The notes below the pieces were generated by a model. The model was not told the origin of the DNA, ran no database searches, and worked only from the letters and a program-made list of their open reading frames with translations. From Escherichia coli (lineage in GTDB: Bacteria > Pseudomonadota > Gammaproteobacteria > Enterobacterales > Enterobacteriaceae): DNA of 64,000 bases. Made by a program: the position numbers and the translations under genes. The stretch lies in NCBI RefSeq assembly GCF_017348835.2, contig NZ_CP071375.1. The stretch is one strand, 5' to 3'. Positions 2,570-45,281 of this stretch are shown one piece after another (the first letter of the stretch is position 1; each line of letters begins with the position of its first letter).

Positions 2570-3091
2570 ATGAATATGGGTCTTTTTTACGGTTCCAGCA
2601 CCTGTTACACCGAAATGGCGGCAGAAAAAATCCGCGATATTATCGGCCCAGAACTGGTGACCTTACATAACCTCAAGGACGACTCCCCGAAATTAATGGA
2701 GCAGTACGATGTGCTCATTCTGGGTATCCCGACTTGGGATTTTGGCGAAATCCAGGAAGACTGGGAAGCCGTCTGGGATCAGCTCGACGACCTGAACCTC
2801 GAAGGTAAAATTGTTGCGCTGTATGGGCTTGGCGATCAACTGGGATACGGCGAGTGGTTCCTCGATGCGCTCGGTATGCTGCATGACAAACTCTCGACCA
2901 AAGGCGTAAAGTTCGTCGGCTACTGGCCAACGGAAGGATATGAATTTACCAGCCCGAAACCGGTGATTGCTGACGGGCAACTGTTCGTGGGTCTGGCGCT
3001 GGATGAAACTAACCAGTATGACCTTAGCGACGAGCGTATTCAGAGCTGGTGCGAGCAAATCCTCAACGAAATGGCAGAGCATTACGCCTGA
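2570..3091 (+). CDS. fldB: flavodoxin 2
   Basis: 173 aa ORF, flavodoxin fold ([12 protein letters not shown]). Confidence 0.95.
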
Positions 3092-3130: not shown

Positions 3131-3797
<667 letters not shown>

Positions 3798-4027
3798 TCA
3801 CGAAAATCCAGTACCAGGCTATTGTAACGTGTTTTTCGACTTCTTTTACGGGAATATCAGTAAACACAATCGCGATCGCGAAATTAATTCACAACAATTC
3901 AAGGGCTTCATTTTTTTGGAAGTCGCCTCGCAGAAGGCACAGATCGCGTAGTGAAAGCACTTGCATTGCCTCATAGCTCTTTTACCATTAGTTATTAATA
4001 CGCCGTTAAGCAACTCAGGACTCTATT

Positions 4028-5008
4028 ATGGCTTTTACACCTTTTCCTCCCCGTCAGCCTACGGCTTCTGCCCGTTTACCGCTGACGCTGATGACGCTTG
4101 ATGACTGGGCGCTTGCCACCATTACTGGCGCGGACAGCGAAAAATATATGCAGGGCCAGGTGACAGCAGATGTCAGCCAGATGACAGAAAATCAGCACCT
4201 GCTCGCCGCCCATTGCGACGCCAAAGGTAAAATGTGGAGCAATTTACGTCTGTTCCGCGACGGCGATGGCTTTGCGTGGATTGAACGGCGCAGCGTGCGT
4301 GAATCGCAGCTGATTGAACTGAAAAAATATGCGGTGTTCTCTAAAGTGACCATCGCGCCAGACGACGAGCGTGTGCTGCTTGGTGTTGCCGGTTTTCAGG
4401 CGCGCGCCGCGCTGGCCAATCTCTTTAGTGAACTGCCTTCGAAAGAAAAACAGGTAGTTAAAGAAGGCGCGACCACTTTGCTATGGTTTGAACACCCGGC
4501 AGAACGTTTCCTGATCGTAACCGATGAAGCTACTGCCAATATGCTGACCGATAAACTGCGCGGTGAAGCGGAACTGAACAATAGCCAACAGTGGCTGGCA
4601 TTAAACATTGAAGCGGGTTTCCCGGTGATTGATGCCGCCAACAGCGGGCAGTTTATCCCACAGGCGACCAATCTCCAGGCGCTGGGCGGTATCAGCTTTA
4701 AGAAAGGATGTTATACCGGACAAGAGATGGTGGCGCGAGCAAAATTCCGTGGTGCCAATAAACGTGCGCTCTGGTTGCTGGCAGGTAGCGCCAGCCGACT
4801 GCCGGAAGCTGGTGAAGACTTAGAGCTGAAAATGGGCGAGAACTGGCGTCGTACCGGTACGGTGCTGGCTGCGGTAAAACTGGAAGATGGTCAGGTCGTG
4901 GTACAGGTCGTCATGAATAACGATATGGAACCGGACAGCATCTTCCGCGTACGCGACGATGCGAATACACTGCATATCGAGCCGCTGCCGTATTCGCTCG
5001 AAGAGTAA
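4028..5008 (+). CDS. ygfZ: tRNA-modifying / Fe-S repair folate-binding protein YgfZ
   Basis: 326 aa ORF, GcvT-like fold sequence. Confidence 0.9.
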
Positions 5009-39623: not shown

Positions 39624-40643
39624 TTACCTGAAAGCAACAGTAGCCATAGCTAACGTCGTGTCGAGCATTCGGTTAGCAAAGCCCCATTCGTTATCGCACC
39701 AGACCAACGTTTTGATCAGGTGTGCGCCACTGACCCGGGTTTGGGTGCCATCGACAATGGCACTGTGCGGATCGTGGTTAAAATCTACAGAGACCAACGG
39801 CAATTCCGTATAGTCAACTATACCATGAAATGCACCTTGTGCTGCTTTTTGCAGCAACAGGTTGACTTCATTGGCTTTTACAGGTTTCTTCACCGTCACG
39901 CTTAAATCGATTGCCGTCACATTTATGGTTGGCACACGTACCGCAATCGCTTCAAAGCGATCGTTAAATTGCGGAAAAAATCGTGTGATACCGGCGGCCA
40001 GTTTAGTATCGACTGGAATGATCGACTGGCTGGCTGCCCGAGTGCGACGCAGGTCAGGATGGTATGCATCAATAACCTGTTGATCGTGCATGGCGGAGTG
40101 AATTGTGGTCACAGTGCCGGACTCAATACCGTACGCATCATCTAACAATTTGATGACGGGAATTATGCAATTCGTGGTACAGGAAGCGTTAGAAACGATG
40201 CGGTGTTCCGCACGAAGTTGATCCTGATTGACGCCGTAAACAACGGTCGCGTCGAGATCGTTACTGCCAGGATGTGAAAAGAGCACTTTTTTGGCCCCGG
40301 CGGCAATATGCGCTTCGCCATGCTCGCGGGAGCCATATACGCCGGTGCAGTCGAGGACTACATCAACGCCAAGTTCACGCCAGGGGAGCGATTGCAGTGA
40401 ACGTTCATGCAATACGCGGATGGCGTCATCACCAACAAAAAGTTGATCGCGTTCCTGTCGTACTTCCCATGCAAAACGGCCATGGCTGGTGTCATATTTC
40501 AACAAATGCGCCATGCCCGCAGCATCCGCCAGTTCGTTGATTGCCACCACGGTAATTTCCGCCCGGCGTCCGGATTCATACAAAGCACGAACCACATTAC
40601 GCCCGATGCGACCGAAGCCATTTATCGCTACGCGTACGGTCAT
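39624..40643 (-). CDS. epd: D-erythrose-4-phosphate dehydrogenase
   Basis: 339 aa from ATG 40643 ([15 protein letters not shown]...); ORF track start 40727 is a TTG-initiated extension. Confidence 0.95.
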
Positions 40644-40764
40644 AGATCTCCTGCAAGATTTTCCCTGAGCAAATTTGCCAGACAGAGTAATCCAGCAAAT
40701 CGTCCGGGGAAACCTTACCTGTCGCAAACTGCGACTGATTGGTTAATTGTCGAACATTTAATCG

Positions 40765-40780
40765 ACTGAAACGCTTCAGC
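40765..40780. promoter_or_regulatory. Cra (FruR) operator upstream of epd
   Basis: actgaaacgcttcagc, near-perfect palindrome matching the Cra consensus (GCTGAAACGTTTCAGC type). Confidence 0.5.
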
Positions 40781-41014
40781 TAGGATAAGCGAAACGTGGA
40801 ATAAAAGGAATGATTGTCCAGTCAAAGAAAACAAATATCTGACTTACGTCACGTTTTCAGCCCCGCCCCTGTGGAATTTATTCCACTTTGCAGAATCACG
40901 AATAAGCGTAGCAAAATCTTTTCGTTGTGCCGTCACAAACCCTGACTTATATCAGAATATGACTGATGCAGCGTCGATATTATCTGCAATACGTCCGAGT
41001 TTCGGAGTACTCCA

Positions 41015-41446
41015 ATGATGACATTGCCCTACCCATATTCTTCCTCCGCACGCTTTTACGCACTGCGCCTCCTCCCCGGGCAGGAAGTTTTTTCCCAGCT
41101 ACACGCTTTTGCACACCAGCAGCAACTTCATGCCGCCTGGATTGCAGGCTGTACCGGTAGCCTGACTGACATCGCCTTGCGCTATGCCGGGCAAGAAGGC
41201 ACCACGCTCCTGAACGGTACATTCGAAGTGATCTCACTAAACGGCACGTTGGAACAGAGTGGTGAGCATCTTCATCTCTGCGTTTCCGATCCACACGGCA
41301 CGATGCTTGGCGGTCATATGATGCCCGGCTGTACCGTGCGGACCACGCTTGAACTGGTGATCGGTAGCCTTGAGGAACTGGCGTTTAGCCGCCAACCTTG
41401 CGCGCTTTCTGGTTACGACGAGTTGCATATTTCCCCCGTTAAATAA
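41015..41446 (+). CDS. PPC (DUF296) domain protein, putative DNA-binding/accessory protein
   Basis: 143 aa; PPC-like pattern RLLPGQEV...GSL...FEVISLNGTL...HLHL...GGHMMPGCTV...LELVIGSL. Confidence 0.55.
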   Translation: MMTLPYPYSSSARFYALRLLPGQEVFSQLHAFAHQQQLHAAWIAGCTGSLTDIALRYAGQEGTTLLNGTFEVISLNGTLEQSGEHLHLCVSDPHGTMLGGHMMPGCTVRTTLELVIGSLEELAFSRQPCALSGYDELHISPVK

Positions 41447-41468
41447 CTACTTTCAGAGAGGTTTTCTT

Positions 41469-42047
41469 ATGGCGCGTCGCCACTTTTCCAGTCAGGCGCT
41501 GGTGTTAATCGTTATATCTATCGCCATCAATATGATCGGCGGGCAACTGGCCAGCATGGTCAAATTACCTATATTTCTCGACTCCATCGGCACACTTATT
41601 AGCGCGGTACTGCTTGGTCCGGTGATCGGAATGCTGACCGGCTTACTGACCAATTTACTCTGGGGATTGCTGACCGACCCGATCGCCGCCGCATTTGCAC
41701 CCGTCGCGATGGTCATCGGCCTGGTCGCCGGTTGGCTGGCGCGAGCGGGTTGGTTTCGCACCCTACCAAAAGTCGTTGTCAGCGGCGTGATTATTACGCT
41801 TGCGGTAACGGTCGTCGCTGTACCGCTGCGTACTGCGCTGTTCGGCGGTGTCACCGGTAGCGGAGCCGATTTGTTCGTTGCCTGGATGCACTCGATGGGG
41901 CAAAACCTGGTGGAGTCGGTGGCGATTACGGTGATAGGCGCGAACCTGGTCGATAAAACTCTTACAGCGGTGATTGTCTGGCTTTTACTGCGCCAGCTGC
42001 CGATTCGCACCACGCGCCATTTTCCGGCAATGGCTGCCGTGCGCTAA
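41469..42047 (+). CDS. ECF transporter substrate-specific (S) component, specificity unknown
   Basis: 192 aa from ATG 41469 (GAGAGG Shine-Dalgarno-like sequence 8 nt upstream), about 6 TM helices; stop abuts next start. Confidence 0.55.
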   Translation: MARRHFSSQALVLIVISIAINMIGGQLASMVKLPIFLDSIGTLISAVLLGPVIGMLTGLLTNLLWGLLTDPIAAAFAPVAMVIGLVAGWLARAGWFRTLPKVVVSGVIITLAVTVVAVPLRTALFGGVTGSGADLFVAWMHSMGQNLVESVAITVIGANLVDKTLTAVIVWLLLRQLPIRTTRHFPAMAAVR

Positions 42048-42755
42048 ATGCATCCATTTACCTCATTAACACTGTGGGCATTGGCGGCCTGCACCACGCT
42101 TATCCTGCCCGCGCAGACCATTTTGCCGATCTATAGCGCGGCGACCTTTTTTTGCCTTATTGCGCTAAAGGCCACGCGGCGGCGGGCAAAATATGTCGTC
42201 TGGCTGATGTTCTCGCTGGGAGCCGGGCTGTGGCTGGTACACGGTGGCTGGCTAACAGAATGGCTAAGCGGCACGCCGCGTTCGCCGGAGCGTTGGACGC
42301 ATGCTATTACGCTCTGGTTGCGGATTCTGGCGATTGTTTCAACCTCACAGTTGTGGATGCAGTACGTCCCCGTGCAATGTTTTATCCGCGCTCTGTTTGC
42401 TTCTCGCCTGCCGCCAGGCGTCGCTTATCTGTTTGCCGGGCCGTTATTGGTCGTTGAGCAGTTAAAACGGCAATTAGCGATTATTCATGAAGCGCAGCGT
42501 GCCCGCGGCGTGCCGCTGGATGAGGGCTGGTATCAGCGTTTACGTGCGATGCCCGCGTTAATTATTCCGCTAACACACAATGCGCTAAACGATCTTGCTG
42601 TCCGTGGTGCGGCGCTGGATATGCGGGCATTTCGGATCCACAACCGACGAACAACGTTGTGGGCACCAGCCGATAGCACCCTACAACGCGTAGCGCGTTA
42701 CACCATGATCTTGCTGATGCTGACAGAATTCGGAGCGTGGATATGGTTACGTTAG
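42048..42755 (+). CDS. ECF transporter transmembrane (T) component, EcfT/CbiQ family
   Basis: 235 aa membrane protein with coupling-helix motif HEAQRARGV. Confidence 0.65.
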   Translation: MHPFTSLTLWALAACTTLILPAQTILPIYSAATFFCLIALKATRRRAKYVVWLMFSLGAGLWLVHGGWLTEWLSGTPRSPERWTHAITLWLRILAIVSTSQLWMQYVPVQCFIRALFASRLPPGVAYLFAGPLLVVEQLKRQLAIIHEAQRARGVPLDEGWYQRLRAMPALIIPLTHNALNDLAVRGAALDMRAFRIHNRRTTLWAPADSTLQRVARYTMILLMLTEFGAWIWLR

Positions 42756-43420
42756 AACAGTTCCGTTATTGCCCGACACACTCAACGCATCCTCCGTTCT
42801 GTTATGACTTTCACTATGTCAAACCGGGGATGGTCGCCATCTTTGGTGACAACGGCAGTGGCAAAAGTACGCTGGCACAGCTGATGGCGGGCTGGTATCC
42901 GGACTTTCTGCCAGGAGAGATAACAGGCACGGGGACGCTCCTCGGTACGCCCATTGGGCATCTCCCGCTTAATGAACAATCCGCCACCATCCAGCTCGTC
43001 CAGCAATCGCCCTATTTGCAGCTCTCCGGCTGTACCTTTAGCGTGGAAGAAGAAGTTGCCTTTGGGCCAGAAAATCTGTGTCTTGCTGAAGCAGAGATTA
43101 TGGCGCGGATTGATGCCGCCCTGACTCTGACCGAGTGCCAGCCGTTGCGCCATCGTCACCCGGCAACACTCTCCGGTGGAGAGACACAGCGCGTGGTCAT
43201 CGCCTGCGCCATCGCGATGCAGCCAAAGCTATTAATTCTTGATGAAGCCTTTAGCCGCCTGACGCCGCAGGCCAGCGAAATGCTGTTGCAGCGCTTACAA
43301 CACTGGGCGTTTGAACGTGGTTCGCTGATTATTCTTTTTGAACGTCATCGCACACCTTTCCTGAACTACTGCCAGCAAGCGTGGCAATTGCAAAACGGAG
43401 CACTCCAGCCACTATGTTAA
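42743..43420 (+). CDS. ECF/ABC transporter ATPase (A component)
   Basis: Walker A GDNGSGKST, signature LSGGETQRV, Walker B LLILDEA; overlaps T-component stop. Confidence 0.8.
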   Translation: MVTLEQFRYCPTHSTHPPFCYDFHYVKPGMVAIFGDNGSGKSTLAQLMAGWYPDFLPGEITGTGTLLGTPIGHLPLNEQSATIQLVQQSPYLQLSGCTFSVEEEVAFGPENLCLAEAEIMARIDAALTLTECQPLRHRHPATLSGGETQRVVIACAIAMQPKLLILDEAFSRLTPQASEMLLQRLQHWAFERGSLIILFERHRTPFLNYCQQAWQLQNGALQPLC

Positions 43421-44091
43421 CGTTAAATCAGATATCTTATCGCTGGCCTGGCGCTGCAACGGATTGTCTTTGCGACATTTCTCTGCAACTCAAACAAGGT
43501 GAATGGTTGGCGCTGACCGGTGACAATGGCGCAGGGAAATCGACGCTGTTACGAGTAATGGCAGGTCTTCTTACGCCCACAGCCGGTACGGTTATGCTGC
43601 AACAACAGGCGATGAAAAACCTGAAAAACCGCCAGCGCGCGGCAAAGATTGGCGTACTGTTTCAGGAAGCGGAAAACCAACTTTTTCACAGCACCGTCGC
43701 TGACGAGATCGCATTTGGTTTGAAACTGCAAAAATGCCCGGCGGATGAAATCACTCAACGTACCCATGCTGCCCTGCAATGTTGTCAGTTAGCAGACACT
43801 GCCAGCGCGCACCCGTTGGATCTGCATAGTGCGCAGCGACGGATGGTCGCCGTCGCCTGCCTGGAAGCACTCTCTCCGCCACTATTGCTGCTGGACGAGC
43901 CGAGTCGGGATTTTGACGAAAATTGGTTGAGCGTGTTTGAAAGCTGGCTGGAGAAGTGCCGCCAGCGAGGCACGAGCGTCGTAGCAATCAGTCATGACGC
44001 CGCATTTACCCGGCGTCATTTCTCTCGTGTGGTGCGACTGGAAGATGGTCTAATCAGGAACGTTAATCCACCAGAAGATATTCACCCGTAG
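43414..44091 (+). CDS. ECF/ABC transporter ATPase, second copy with degenerate signature motif
   Basis: Walker A GDNGAGKST, Walker B LLLLDEPSRD, signature reduced to LHSAQRR; ATG overlaps previous stop (atgttaa). Confidence 0.8.
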   Translation: MLTLNQISYRWPGAATDCLCDISLQLKQGEWLALTGDNGAGKSTLLRVMAGLLTPTAGTVMLQQQAMKNLKNRQRAAKIGVLFQEAENQLFHSTVADEIAFGLKLQKCPADEITQRTHAALQCCQLADTASAHPLDLHSAQRRMVAVACLEALSPPLLLLDEPSRDFDENWLSVFESWLEKCRQRGTSVVAISHDAAFTRRHFSRVVRLEDGLIRNVNPPEDIHP

Positions 44092-44776
44092 CGGTCATCA
44101 TTAAGGTCAAATTTGCAGGCAGACTCTCTTCCAGCACCCGGCGAACATTCGGCCCGTCGGTACGGTCATAAAAAGCTTCTGCGTCTGCCAGCGATACCCC
44201 TCCCGCCAGCTTGCGCCCTACCAGTCGTTCCCGCAACGCAGTAGCTGGCGCGTTGATAAAGATCGAGAAATCACAAAATTGCGCAAGCTGGCACCACTTC
44301 TCGTCGTCCAGCAACAACCAGTTTCCTTCGACGATGACGAGTGGTGCGGTAACGTGCAACGCATCTTCAACAGGATCATGCTTTTGTCGATCGTACTGCG
44401 GCCACGTACAATCCCCTTCCACGACATGGCGCAGATTTTCCGCCAGTTTCGCAACGTCAAATGTCTCTGGTGCGCCTTTGAAGGGGCGCAATTGATGCGC
44501 ATCCAGCCAGCTATTGTAATGGTGAAAACCATCCATCGGGAGCGTCTGAATAGCGGGCAGTTCCGGGTCTTGTTGCGCGAGATATTCCCAGAATGTGGTT
44601 AGGGTAGATTTACCCGTCCCCGGCGGAGCGCAAAGAAAAACCACCGTACGCCGCTGCGGATTTACCGTCTGTAAGGCCGCCAGCATACGCAGCAACGGTT
44701 TATGCACGCGTTTAATCTCTTCATCATGGTACTGCGCTTGCACGTTCAGCCCATTCACCGTTAATTCAATTTTCAC
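44063..44776 (-). CDS. yggC: P-loop nucleoside/pantothenate-kinase-like protein YggC
   Basis: 237 aa from GTG, Walker A CAPPGTGKST. Confidence 0.85.
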   Translation of the reverse strand: MKIELTVNGLNVQAQYHDEEIKRVHKPLLRMLAALQTVNPQRRTVVFLCAPPGTGKSTLTTFWEYLAQQDPELPAIQTLPMDGFHHYNSWLDAHQLRPFKGAPETFDVAKLAENLRHVVEGDCTWPQYDRQKHDPVEDALHVTAPLVIVEGNWLLLDDEKWCQLAQFCDFSIFINAPATALRERLVGRKLAGGVSLADAEAFYDRTDGPNVRRVLEESLPANLTLMMTATGEYLLVD

Positions 44777-45281
44777 GGCGTTAATTCCTTTAAGGTGGTC
44801 GTTACTGCCAGCGTCAGCGCCGTTTTGACCATTCCGCTAAAACGCGCATCTGACCAGACGGCGAAATCGGCGAACTTCATCGCTTTCAACGCGTCATAGA
44901 GCGTCGCATTGCAGGTTATGCTATGACGTTGCTGATAAAATCCCAGGTCATGTCATCGGCAAATCCGGGCGTTTCATCCTGTTCGTTCAGGTAATGCCAG
45001 AACTGGGAAAAATGCGTGATATCGGCGTACAGCCATTTATCCATTTTCCCCAGCGCATAAATCAAACGCAGTGCAACATCAATGTCGTCAAGCGGGCCGC
45101 TTTGGGCGAGTAACGGCTTCACTGCATATTCGACGATCTCTTCATCGTTATCGACAAACAGCGACGGCAGAAACTGGCGTATCCCCTGGAGCAAAATAGA
45201 ATGCGCAGTTTTCATAAATGAAAATAAATTGTCCTGTGCATCCAGTTGCTCAAGCACATCATCTTCTGTCAGCGTCGCCAT
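44773..45281 (-). pseudogene. yggD: yggD (MtlR-like regulator) interrupted by an apparent 1-nt frameshift
   Basis: Frame A reads 121 aa then stops (...DFISNVIA*); a second frame continues ...SITCNATLYDALKAMKF...KELTP and ends in a TGA overlapping the yggC GTG; combined length would be 169 codons. Confidence 0.5.

Follow-up and report, generated by a model that had tools for sequence, protein, structure and literature searches.

Within the window (the whole stretch of Escherichia coli DNA analysed, 64 kb in length) five genes on the plus strand form an operon in the order PCC-S-T-A1-A2, all five reading frames being intact and their ends overlapping or abutting. The first encodes a PCC/DUF296-domain protein of 143 amino acids (41015..41446; Pfam PF03479, E=6.7e-28), for a close relative of which there is a solved structure, 2HX0/2NMU, described as a 'putative DNA-binding protein' (E=4e-74). 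It is followed by the S, or substrate-capture, component of an ECF (vitamin-type) transporter (192 aa, 41469..42047) and, starting directly after the S stop codon, by what is probably the T component (235 aa, 42048..42755), which provides the scaffold and coupling. The last two genes specify ABC ATPases, each of 225 aa: A1 (42743..43420; Pfam ABC_tran, E=2.2e-21), which starts with ATG and has an in-frame GTG at 42737, and A2 (43414..44091; ABC_tran, E=2e-27). A1 overlaps T by 13 bp and A2 overlaps A1 by 7 bp (ATGTTAA). On the minus strand yggC (237 aa, 44063..44776), of a nucleoside/nucleotide kinase family (NCBIfam NF006742, 517.6 bits with a cut-off of 402), is a convergent neighbour that lies outside the transporter module. 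The coordinates of A1, A2 and yggC are the same in the NCBI annotation of a 100% identical strain. Another neighbouring gene, fumE, is frameshifted in this strain.

Is this an ECF transporter, and of which type? S carries the PGAP name 'ECF transporter S component' and matches Pfam PF12822 at 33.2 bits (cut-off 30.7). Against the named NCBIfam S-component families it passes no cut-off, the best match being to the CD3073-family S component (134.9 bits, below the cut-off of 180), and in single-sequence searches of the PDB S gave no match and T chance-level matches only. The Pfam CbiQ match of T, at 21.6 bits, is below the cut-off of 25; eight of nine orthologues match CbiQ, the best with E=6.8e-7, and a profile made from the orthologues matches L. 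brevis EcfT (4HUQ_T, E=6.7e-5) across the coupling-helix region. In T, A-R-G is invariant at residues 152-154 and a second motif, V/I/T/A-R-G/S/A, is present at 185-187. For both ATPases the best NCBIfam matches are ECF ATPases, with scores of 120.4 bits for A1 and 145.6 for A2 against TIGR04520 (ECF_ATPase_1, cut-off 315), and of 106.5 and 150.1 respectively against TIGR04521 (ECF_ATPase_2, cut-off 330). The models are 269-279 positions long and the matches reach only to 192-232, so that the C-terminal part of the models is uncovered. With scores so far below the cut-offs and matches that are partial, the possibility that A1 and A2 are EcfA/EcfA' equivalogs of shared (group II) modules was rejected.

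The closest single-domain solved relatives are the group II EcfA/EcfA'/T complexes of L. brevis (4HUQ/4RFS), L. delbrueckii (5JSZ) and T. maritima (4HLU), with E=5e-30 for A2 and E=2e-24 for A1. Shared with them are an S component, a probable T component, two different ATPases whose best models are ECF_ATPase_1 and ECF_ATPase_2, and a T profile matching EcfT, A-R-G included. However, unlike group II, where the models would call for 315-330 bits rather than the ~120-150 found and for coverage of their C-terminal part, the S gene is inside the operon, as befits a dedicated module, a fifth gene, for the PCC-domain protein, is conserved, and one signature, that of A2, is degenerate. In the L. delbrueckii ECF-FolT complex, AMP-PNP is bound by both subunits and the signature motifs are given as LSGGQ (PMC4820897). 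The presence of S, T and A genes in one operon, inherited together, is a feature of group I (dedicated) transporters, and here the five genes are kept as a unit, in the order PCC-S-T-A1-A2, at 9 loci whose flanks differ and among which are three unrelated genomic contexts. The YkoEDC type of group I also has a dedicated operon of S, T and ATPase genes (PMC5037267), but its tandem ATPases are fused whereas the enterobacterial A1 and A2 are encoded by separate genes, and ykoEDC is controlled by a THI-box whereas no riboswitch or other Rfam element is upstream of PCC-S-T-A1-A2. A scan of 40600-44300 with Rfam, at permissive thresholds, detected no riboswitch or other RNA family, and so gives no clue to the substrate; scans of 40700-44900 for promoter and terminator consensus sequences gave no more matches than shuffled sequences did.

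Both ATPases match the ABC_tran profile well above its cut-off of 25 (77.3 bits for A1 and 96.9 for A2), with Walker A, Q-loop and Walker B present in each; it is on the LSGGQ-type signature that they part company, with A1 having canonical LSGGE and A2 having LHSAQ. In A2 an A-loop Tyr (43438-43440), Walker A GDNGAGKST (43519-43545), Q-loop (43660-43674), Walker B with its Glu, LLLLDEP (43882-43902), D-loop SRDFD (43903-43917) and H-loop AISHDA (43984-44001, with SHD at 43990-43998) surround a signature that reads LHSAQRR (43822-43842). These coordinates and the alignments bear out the initial annotation, which had Walker A, Walker B and the H-loop retained and the signature reduced to LHSAQRR. 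Could a different placing of gaps restore the motif? This was looked for and excluded. In HMMER alignments to solved ABC proteins, LHSAQRRMVAVA of A2 is opposite LSGGQKQRIAIA with no gap; in a BLASTP comparison of the two ATPases its signature position is opposite LSGGETQRVVIA of A1; 'SGG' is absent from the whole of the 225-residue A2. Since the distance from signature Leu to Walker B Asp is normal, being 24 residues as in ABCB1, no gap placement can restore it. The residue-level comparison came from two-domain ABCB proteins, which outrank the EcfA/EcfA' chains, and from the alignment of A1 with A2.

A1 had been described at the outset as canonical, and for Walker A (GDNGSGKST, 42845-42871), the signature (LSGGETQR, 43169-43192, of which LSGGE is 43169-43183) and Walker B with its Glu (LLILDEA, 43229-43249) that description stands; its Q-loop is at 42998-43012. 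However, it does not extend to the H-loop His or the D-loop. The D-loop is deviant, FSRLT (43250-43264), and the H-loop position, LFERHR (43334-43351), is without the conserved His. In an alignment of orthologues the His position is occupied by invariant F-E-R, followed by H, N, T or A, and the D-loop is SRLT or SRLS with the Walker B Glu kept, so that LSGGE, DEAFSRL(T/S) and FER are invariant and a conserved His is lacking. The E. coli protein does have a His, H202, one or two residues past the expected switch position, and in one gapped HMMER alignment it was paired with the canonical His. A1 keeps the P-loop Lys, an aromatic A-loop residue and the Walker B Asp-Glu.

The deviation in the A2 signature is conserved and is not a strain-specific lesion. 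Among 12 sequences from six genera L137, H138, A140, Q141, R142, R143 and M144 are invariant, DLH[STA]AQRRM being shared by Escherichia, Salmonella, Citrobacter, Klebsiella, Leclercia and Atlantibacter. In orthologues of only 42-58% identity, which include a natural A1-A2 fusion, the motif is LHAGQRRM, and LH[STA][AG]QRRM was present in all 20 of the A2 orthologues examined. Both A1 and A2 are under purifying selection, with dN/dS of ~0.04-0.13, dS being saturated. Below ~58% identity nearly all of the nearest relatives of A2 are tandem-NBD proteins, 460-860 aa in length; the natural fusion mentioned is of the PCC-S-T-A1-A2 module itself (P0123/L008). In 141 such tandem-NBD relatives, chosen by similarity to A2 in a manner that could enrich deviant signatures, the signature is non-canonical in 107 C-halves and 10 N-halves. 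The H-loop His is present in every one of the 141 C-halves and absent from 32-34 N-halves, and where the N-half His is missing the C-half signature is deviant in 30 of 32, as against 77 of 109 where it is present (Fisher p=0.008). Loss of the N-half His thus co-occurs with a deviant C-half signature, with the same polarity as in A1 and A2.

ABC ATPases dimerise head to tail: to each ATP site one subunit contributes Walker A, Walker B and the H-loop, and its partner contributes the signature. By that rule both of the A1 defects and the A2 signature come together in one composite site, and we infer from this placing the catalytic consequences that follow. Site 2, formed by the A-loop Tyr, P-loop, Walker B Asp-Glu, SRDFD and H-loop His of A2 with LSGGE of A1, would be fully canonical, and the prediction is that hydrolysis and the power stroke take place there. 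Site 1, with the P-loop and Walker B of A1 facing the LHSAQ 'signature' of A2, would be the degenerate one: the signature Ser and both Gly, which contact the gamma-phosphate, are replaced in A2, while A1 would bring F-E-R instead of the switch histidine and a D-loop of SRLT instead of SALD. As A1 keeps its P-loop Lys, aromatic A-loop residue and Walker B Asp-Glu, site 1 is predicted to bind ATP, with hydrolysis that would be slow or lost altogether, and may serve as a stable hinge or allosteric site. Roughly one ATP would then be hydrolysed per cycle, as with heterodimeric ABC exporters having a degenerate site. The original proposal of one consensus and one degenerate site is supported, at the level of sequence comparison, by the conservation of the A2 deviation, the matching H-loop and D-loop changes in A1 and the purifying selection on both. 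Overall we think it probable that A1 and A2 are the NBDs of a group I-like ECF importer in which site 2 is canonical and site 1 degenerate, and that the overlap with yggC, considered below, is incidental.

A close parallel is offered by heterodimeric ABC transporters with one consensus and one degenerate site, such as TM287/288, TAP1/2 and CFTR; a review describes degenerate sites as frequent in exporters (PMC3971661). There, too, two non-identical NBDs are involved, the signature of one and catalytic-side residues of the other deviate in the same composite site, the second site is fully canonical and the residues that bind ATP are retained at the degenerate one. However, the TM287/288 type are type IV exporters with their NBDs fused to transmembrane domains, whereas A1 and A2 are free-standing NBDs of 225 aa in an ECF-type importer; also, unlike that type, A1 keeps its Walker B Glu and it is the H-loop His and D-loop that deviate. 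The degenerate-site design is already well known from other ABC transporters and here probably occurs in an ECF module; in the open-access literature no description of degenerate nucleotide sites in ECF transporters was found.

How else might the odd signature be read? That A2, or the operon as a whole, is in decay in E. coli, and that the signature is a lesion of an incipient pseudogene, might be thought from the lack of the operon in ~39% of complete E. coli genomes, K-12 included, and from the frameshift in neighbouring fumE, but it is scarcely credible when the motif is identical or near-identical across six genera and in distant orthologues, dN/dS is ~0.1, the five reading frames are intact and tightly coupled, and E. 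coli has large clusters of the 225-aa proteins; with the signature conservation and dN/dS, decay was rejected. Conservation cuts two ways, and deviant residues that are conserved imply selection for something specific. Turnover at site 1 is possible given that A1 keeps its Walker A Lys and catalytic Glu, and some signature variants are tolerated by other ABC proteins. Both sites could accordingly be competent, with LHSAQ tolerated or re-wired and two ATP used per cycle as in canonical EcfA/EcfA'; for example, invariant A2 His138 could contact the gamma-phosphate in trans in place of the H-loop histidine that A1 lacks. The His at signature position 2 is indeed invariant, with no drift, in the PCC-linked clade, even where identity falls to 42%. 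However, deeper relatives with an A1-like DEAFSR have LNSAE and not LH..Q, so the His is not universal; the C-half signature in the wider family is highly variable, as expected of a relaxed site; and it is established that ABC hydrolysis is generally crippled when the signature loses its Ser together with one or both Gly. Two competent sites are in our judgement unlikely. Somewhat less likely again is that the degenerate site has been re-wired through His138 in trans, or is a regulatory nucleotide sensor working with the PCC-domain protein; if either were true, the PCC-S-T-A1-A2 modules of Enterobacteriaceae would make up an ECF subclass of their own, with five components, a new substrate and new control logic.

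The other peculiarity to be weighed is at the 3′ end of A2, where convergent yggC overlaps it by 29 bp (44063-44091). The coordinates of this tight junction, thought unusual when first seen, are confirmed, but its unusualness is not, as its cause seems ordinary: a non-conserved tail present only where the yggC-cmt cluster abuts. After RLEDG, A2 ends in such a C-terminal tail (plus strand, 44050..44091), the last 29 bp of which are the yggC 3′ end on the other strand, and cross-genus DNA homology stops just past the RLEDG codons. A2 is 216-219 aa where yggC is lacking and 225-229 aa where it is present, with tail sequence varying as well. The overlap would then be a by-product of the cluster lying directly against the operon around the A2 stop, with the reading frame of A2 continuing into yggC antisense as far as a stop codon. 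Might it instead be a selected device that couples the kinase and transporter operons by antisense or transcriptional interference? Convergent overlaps are kept where both clusters occur (29 bp in E. coli, 32 bp in Salmonella and 44 bp in Atlantibacter), and no terminator-like structure was found at the junction (44050..44091). That coupling is nevertheless improbable, as many genomes have the module without yggC, with a shorter A2 and a terminator hairpin; the overlapped tail is conserved in neither sequence nor length; K-12 yggC stays full-length without its partner operon; and a second convergent overlap, of 4 bp, is 13 kb away, so such overlaps are not rare. In Citrobacter freundii, Klebsiella pasteurii and Leclercia yggC is lacking beside the module, as it is in three further contexts; by RNA folding, the hairpin follows the shorter A2 in the yggC-less Klebsiella and Leclercia, and a simple terminator scanner missed the one between A2 and tkt in Citrobacter. 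Because yggC is missing beside the module in most contexts, a functional link between transporter and YggC kinase was rejected. The comparison with K-12 that had been suggested for the yggC 3′ end revealed that its 3′ third is replaced there and the operon absent. The A2/yggC overlap marks the end-point of this K-12 deletion or replacement. Beyond annotation, it has no evident importance.

The operon, present in ~61% of complete E. coli genomes and with orthologues in Salmonella, Citrobacter and Klebsiella, is an accessory transporter that is strain-variable in E. coli, and its absence from K-12 is probably why it has gone unstudied. Literature searches with the Salmonella locus tags STM3071-3075 and with CD3073 turned up nothing relevant, and no paper was found that links DUF296 with ECF. 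ECF transporters are being pursued as antibacterial targets, and in most discussions of them the two ATPase sites are treated as equivalent. If site 1 is degenerate as predicted, a conserved ECF module with such a site built in would be a natural system for establishing the number of ATP used per 'toppling' cycle, and the same polarity is widespread in its tandem-ATPase relatives.

Between epd (39624-40727, minus strand), which flanks them upstream, and yggC (44063-44776, minus strand) lie five genes all in the same direction, on the plus strand: those for a PCC/DUF296-domain protein (PCC, 41015-41446), an ECF S component (S, 41469-42047), a T component (T, 42048-42755) and two ABC ATPases, A1 (42743-43420) and A2 (43414-44091), the last convergent with yggC. 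T starts directly after the S stop and shares 13 bp with A1, which in turn shares 7 bp (ATGTTAA) with A2; such abutting and overlapping gene ends are characteristic of operons with translational coupling. No riboswitch is present at the operon, and the region 40700-44800 is 100% identical to E. coli strain PE164.

Are these genes an ECF transporter? The S protein has a Pfam match of 33.2 bits, above the cut-off of 30.7. The T protein matches Pfam's CbiQ at 21.6 bits, slightly under the cut-off of 25; CbiQ is matched by eight of nine T orthologues, whose profile finds L. brevis EcfT (E=6.7e-5) across the coupling-helix region, with Ala-Arg-Gly invariant. The best NCBIfam matches of A1 and A2 are ECF ATPases, with scores of 106-150 bits where the cut-offs are 315-330, and they stop at model positions 192-232 of 269-279, leaving the models' C-terminal part uncovered; A1 and A2 are thus not equivalogs of EcfA1/EcfA2. 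Nine loci show the order PCC-S-T-A1-A2, and in three of these the genomic context is unrelated. On the family matches and this recurring order, PCC-S-T-A1-A2 is to be regarded as a dedicated ECF module of group I-like type whose conserved partner is a PCC-domain protein. That the PCC gene comes first in every locus, even in unrelated contexts, suggests that its product is a functional partner of the transporter (in Salmonella, L003, it is at 3605-4030; in L008, where A1 and A2 are naturally fused, at 919-1383; in two further loci, L009 and L010, at 2606-3025 and 2387-2815). A solved structure of a close relative, 2HX0/2NMU, is deposited only as a 'putative DNA-binding protein', and literature searches found no paper on the PCC-S-T-A1-A2 locus or linking DUF296 to ECF transporters. 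In some loci a small ORF immediately precedes the PCC gene (L003 3402-3602, 66 aa; L008 555-884, 109 aa); these two have no match in Pfam.

Of 5426 complete E. coli genomes, 3317 carry the operon at a query coverage of at least 80%; K-12-type strains lack it. K-12 lacks roughly 40853-44131, and the 3′ third of its yggC, from about 44304 downstream, is a different, more divergent sequence; the stretch from about 40853 to 44304 has 2654-2970 as its counterpart in the K-12 locus (L002). For YggC residues 1-160 the window matches K-12 at 94% and Salmonella and Atlantibacter at 73% and 76%, the K-12 values for the latter two being 71% and 75%; for residues 161-237 the window matches K-12 at 61% and Salmonella and Atlantibacter at 70% and 74%, against 60% and 58% for K-12. 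As this part of the window's YggC is nearer to the other genera than is that of K-12, the operon-bearing haplotype looks ancestral and that of K-12 looks like a derived deletion or replacement with one recombination end-point inside yggC. The neighbouring fumE (yggD, about 44773-45281, minus strand) is frameshifted in this strain, with a longest ORF of 121 aa versus 169 aa, and the PGAP annotation of the identical strain PE164 marks it as a pseudogene.

The initial annotation had the A2 and yggC 3′ ends overlapping by 29 bp (44063-44091) in an unusually tight junction. The ORF coordinates, like those given for the ATPase pair, are exact and the overlap is real. Of the five convergent junctions within the surrounding 50 kb, three leave gaps (205, 41 and 100 bp) and two overlap (by 4 and 29 bp); tight as the A2/yggC junction is, it is not exceptional. 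Wherever the yggC-cmt cluster adjoins the operon 3′ end, comparable overlaps are seen: A2 is 225 aa in E. coli, 229 aa with a 32-bp overlap in Salmonella, and 227 aa with a 44-bp overlap in Atlantibacter. Where yggC is absent and tkt is downstream, A2 has 216 aa (C. freundii, Leclercia) or 218 aa (K. pasteurii). There, between the convergent A2 and tkt, is an A-run/GC-hairpin/T-run (L005 5658-5692; L007 5650-5680; L004 5665-5700) resembling an intrinsic terminator that works in both directions; it folds in K. pasteurii and Leclercia (z about -2.4), yet in C. freundii, with the same hairpin sequence, the predicted fold is no better than that of shuffled sequence. This sequence is absent at the E. 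coli, Salmonella and Atlantibacter A2/yggC junctions, and no terminator-like structure was found at that of E. coli. DNA homology between yggC-bearing and yggC-less loci ends just past the RLEDG codons of A2, beyond which the A2 tail has no conservation. The likeliest reading of the overlap is that it is a by-product of the two clusters having been joined at the A2 end.

A2 has a Walker A (GDNGAGKST), Q-loop (FQE), Walker B (LLLLDEP), D-loop (SRDFD) and H-loop (SHD), with LHSAQRR at its signature position. Could gaps, differently placed, restore an intact signature? They do not: with HMMER against solved ABC proteins LHSAQRRMVAVA aligns to LSGGQKQRIAIA gap-free, BLASTP of A1 against A2 sets the stretch opposite LSGGETQRVVIA, the signature Leu is the standard 24 residues from the Walker B Asp, and 'SGG' is absent from the whole of A2, so the motif is degenerate, as had been proposed. 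Nor is it a product of decay, which is rejected: DLH[STA]AQRRM is invariant in Escherichia (coli, marmotae, ruysiae), Salmonella, Citrobacter, Klebsiella, Leclercia and Atlantibacter, orthologues only 42-58% identical (one the natural A1-A2 fusion) have LHAGQRRM, and dN/dS for A1 and A2 against five genera, approximate as dS is saturated, is 0.04-0.13, within the range of the other operon genes. By sequence the asymmetric pair is a conserved design.

A1 had been taken as canonical, which holds for its Walker A (GDNGSGKST), signature (LSGGE) and Walker B (LLILDEA), beside a VQQSP Q-loop, but not for its D-loop, SRLT or SRLS versus canonical SALD, nor for its H-loop position, where six genera and more distant orthologues have, in place of S/T-H-D, an invariant F-E-R with H, N, T or A as the next residue; the E. 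coli His 202 is not a conserved residue among them. In the head-to-tail dimer of ABC proteins the catalytic side of one subunit faces the partner's signature, so all the deviations would fall in one composite site, which supports and sharpens the earlier prediction of one catalytic and one degenerate site. The complete site would comprise the A-loop Tyr, P-loop, Walker B Glu, D-loop and H-loop His of A2 with LSGGE of A1. At the degenerate site ATP binding is expected, since A1 keeps the P-loop Lys, an A-loop aromatic residue and Walker B Asp-Glu, and hydrolysis would be impaired, the likely mechanism being one hydrolytic and one ATP-holding site. The conserved His within the deviant A2 signature may have a role. 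Degenerate sites are described as frequent in ABC exporters (PMC3971661); literature searches found no paper on them in ECF transporters, or on family-wide polar asymmetry of fused two-NBD ECF-type ATPases.

Of the top 150 representatives of clusters at 50% identity, 141 carry tandem NBDs. In these, chosen by similarity to A2, the signature is non-canonical in 10 N-halves and 107 C-halves, and the H-loop His is missing from 32-34 N-halves and no C-half; a deviant C-half signature accompanies 30 of 32 lacking the N-half His versus 77 of 109 others (Fisher p=0.008). The third position of the C-terminal signature in relatives P0126-P0270 is often Arg or Lys (LSRGQ, LSKGE). Two more distant relatives, P0134 (683 aa) and P0145 (652 aa), have some 200-240 extra N-terminal residues before an A1-like NBD (LSGGEAQK, DEAFSR) and an A2-like NBD with signature LNSAE, and may be T-A1-A2 triple fusions. 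As C-half signature and N-half His deviations recur and co-occur in relatives, the polarity of the E. coli pair, on these comparisons, characterises its branch of the ECF-type ATPases.
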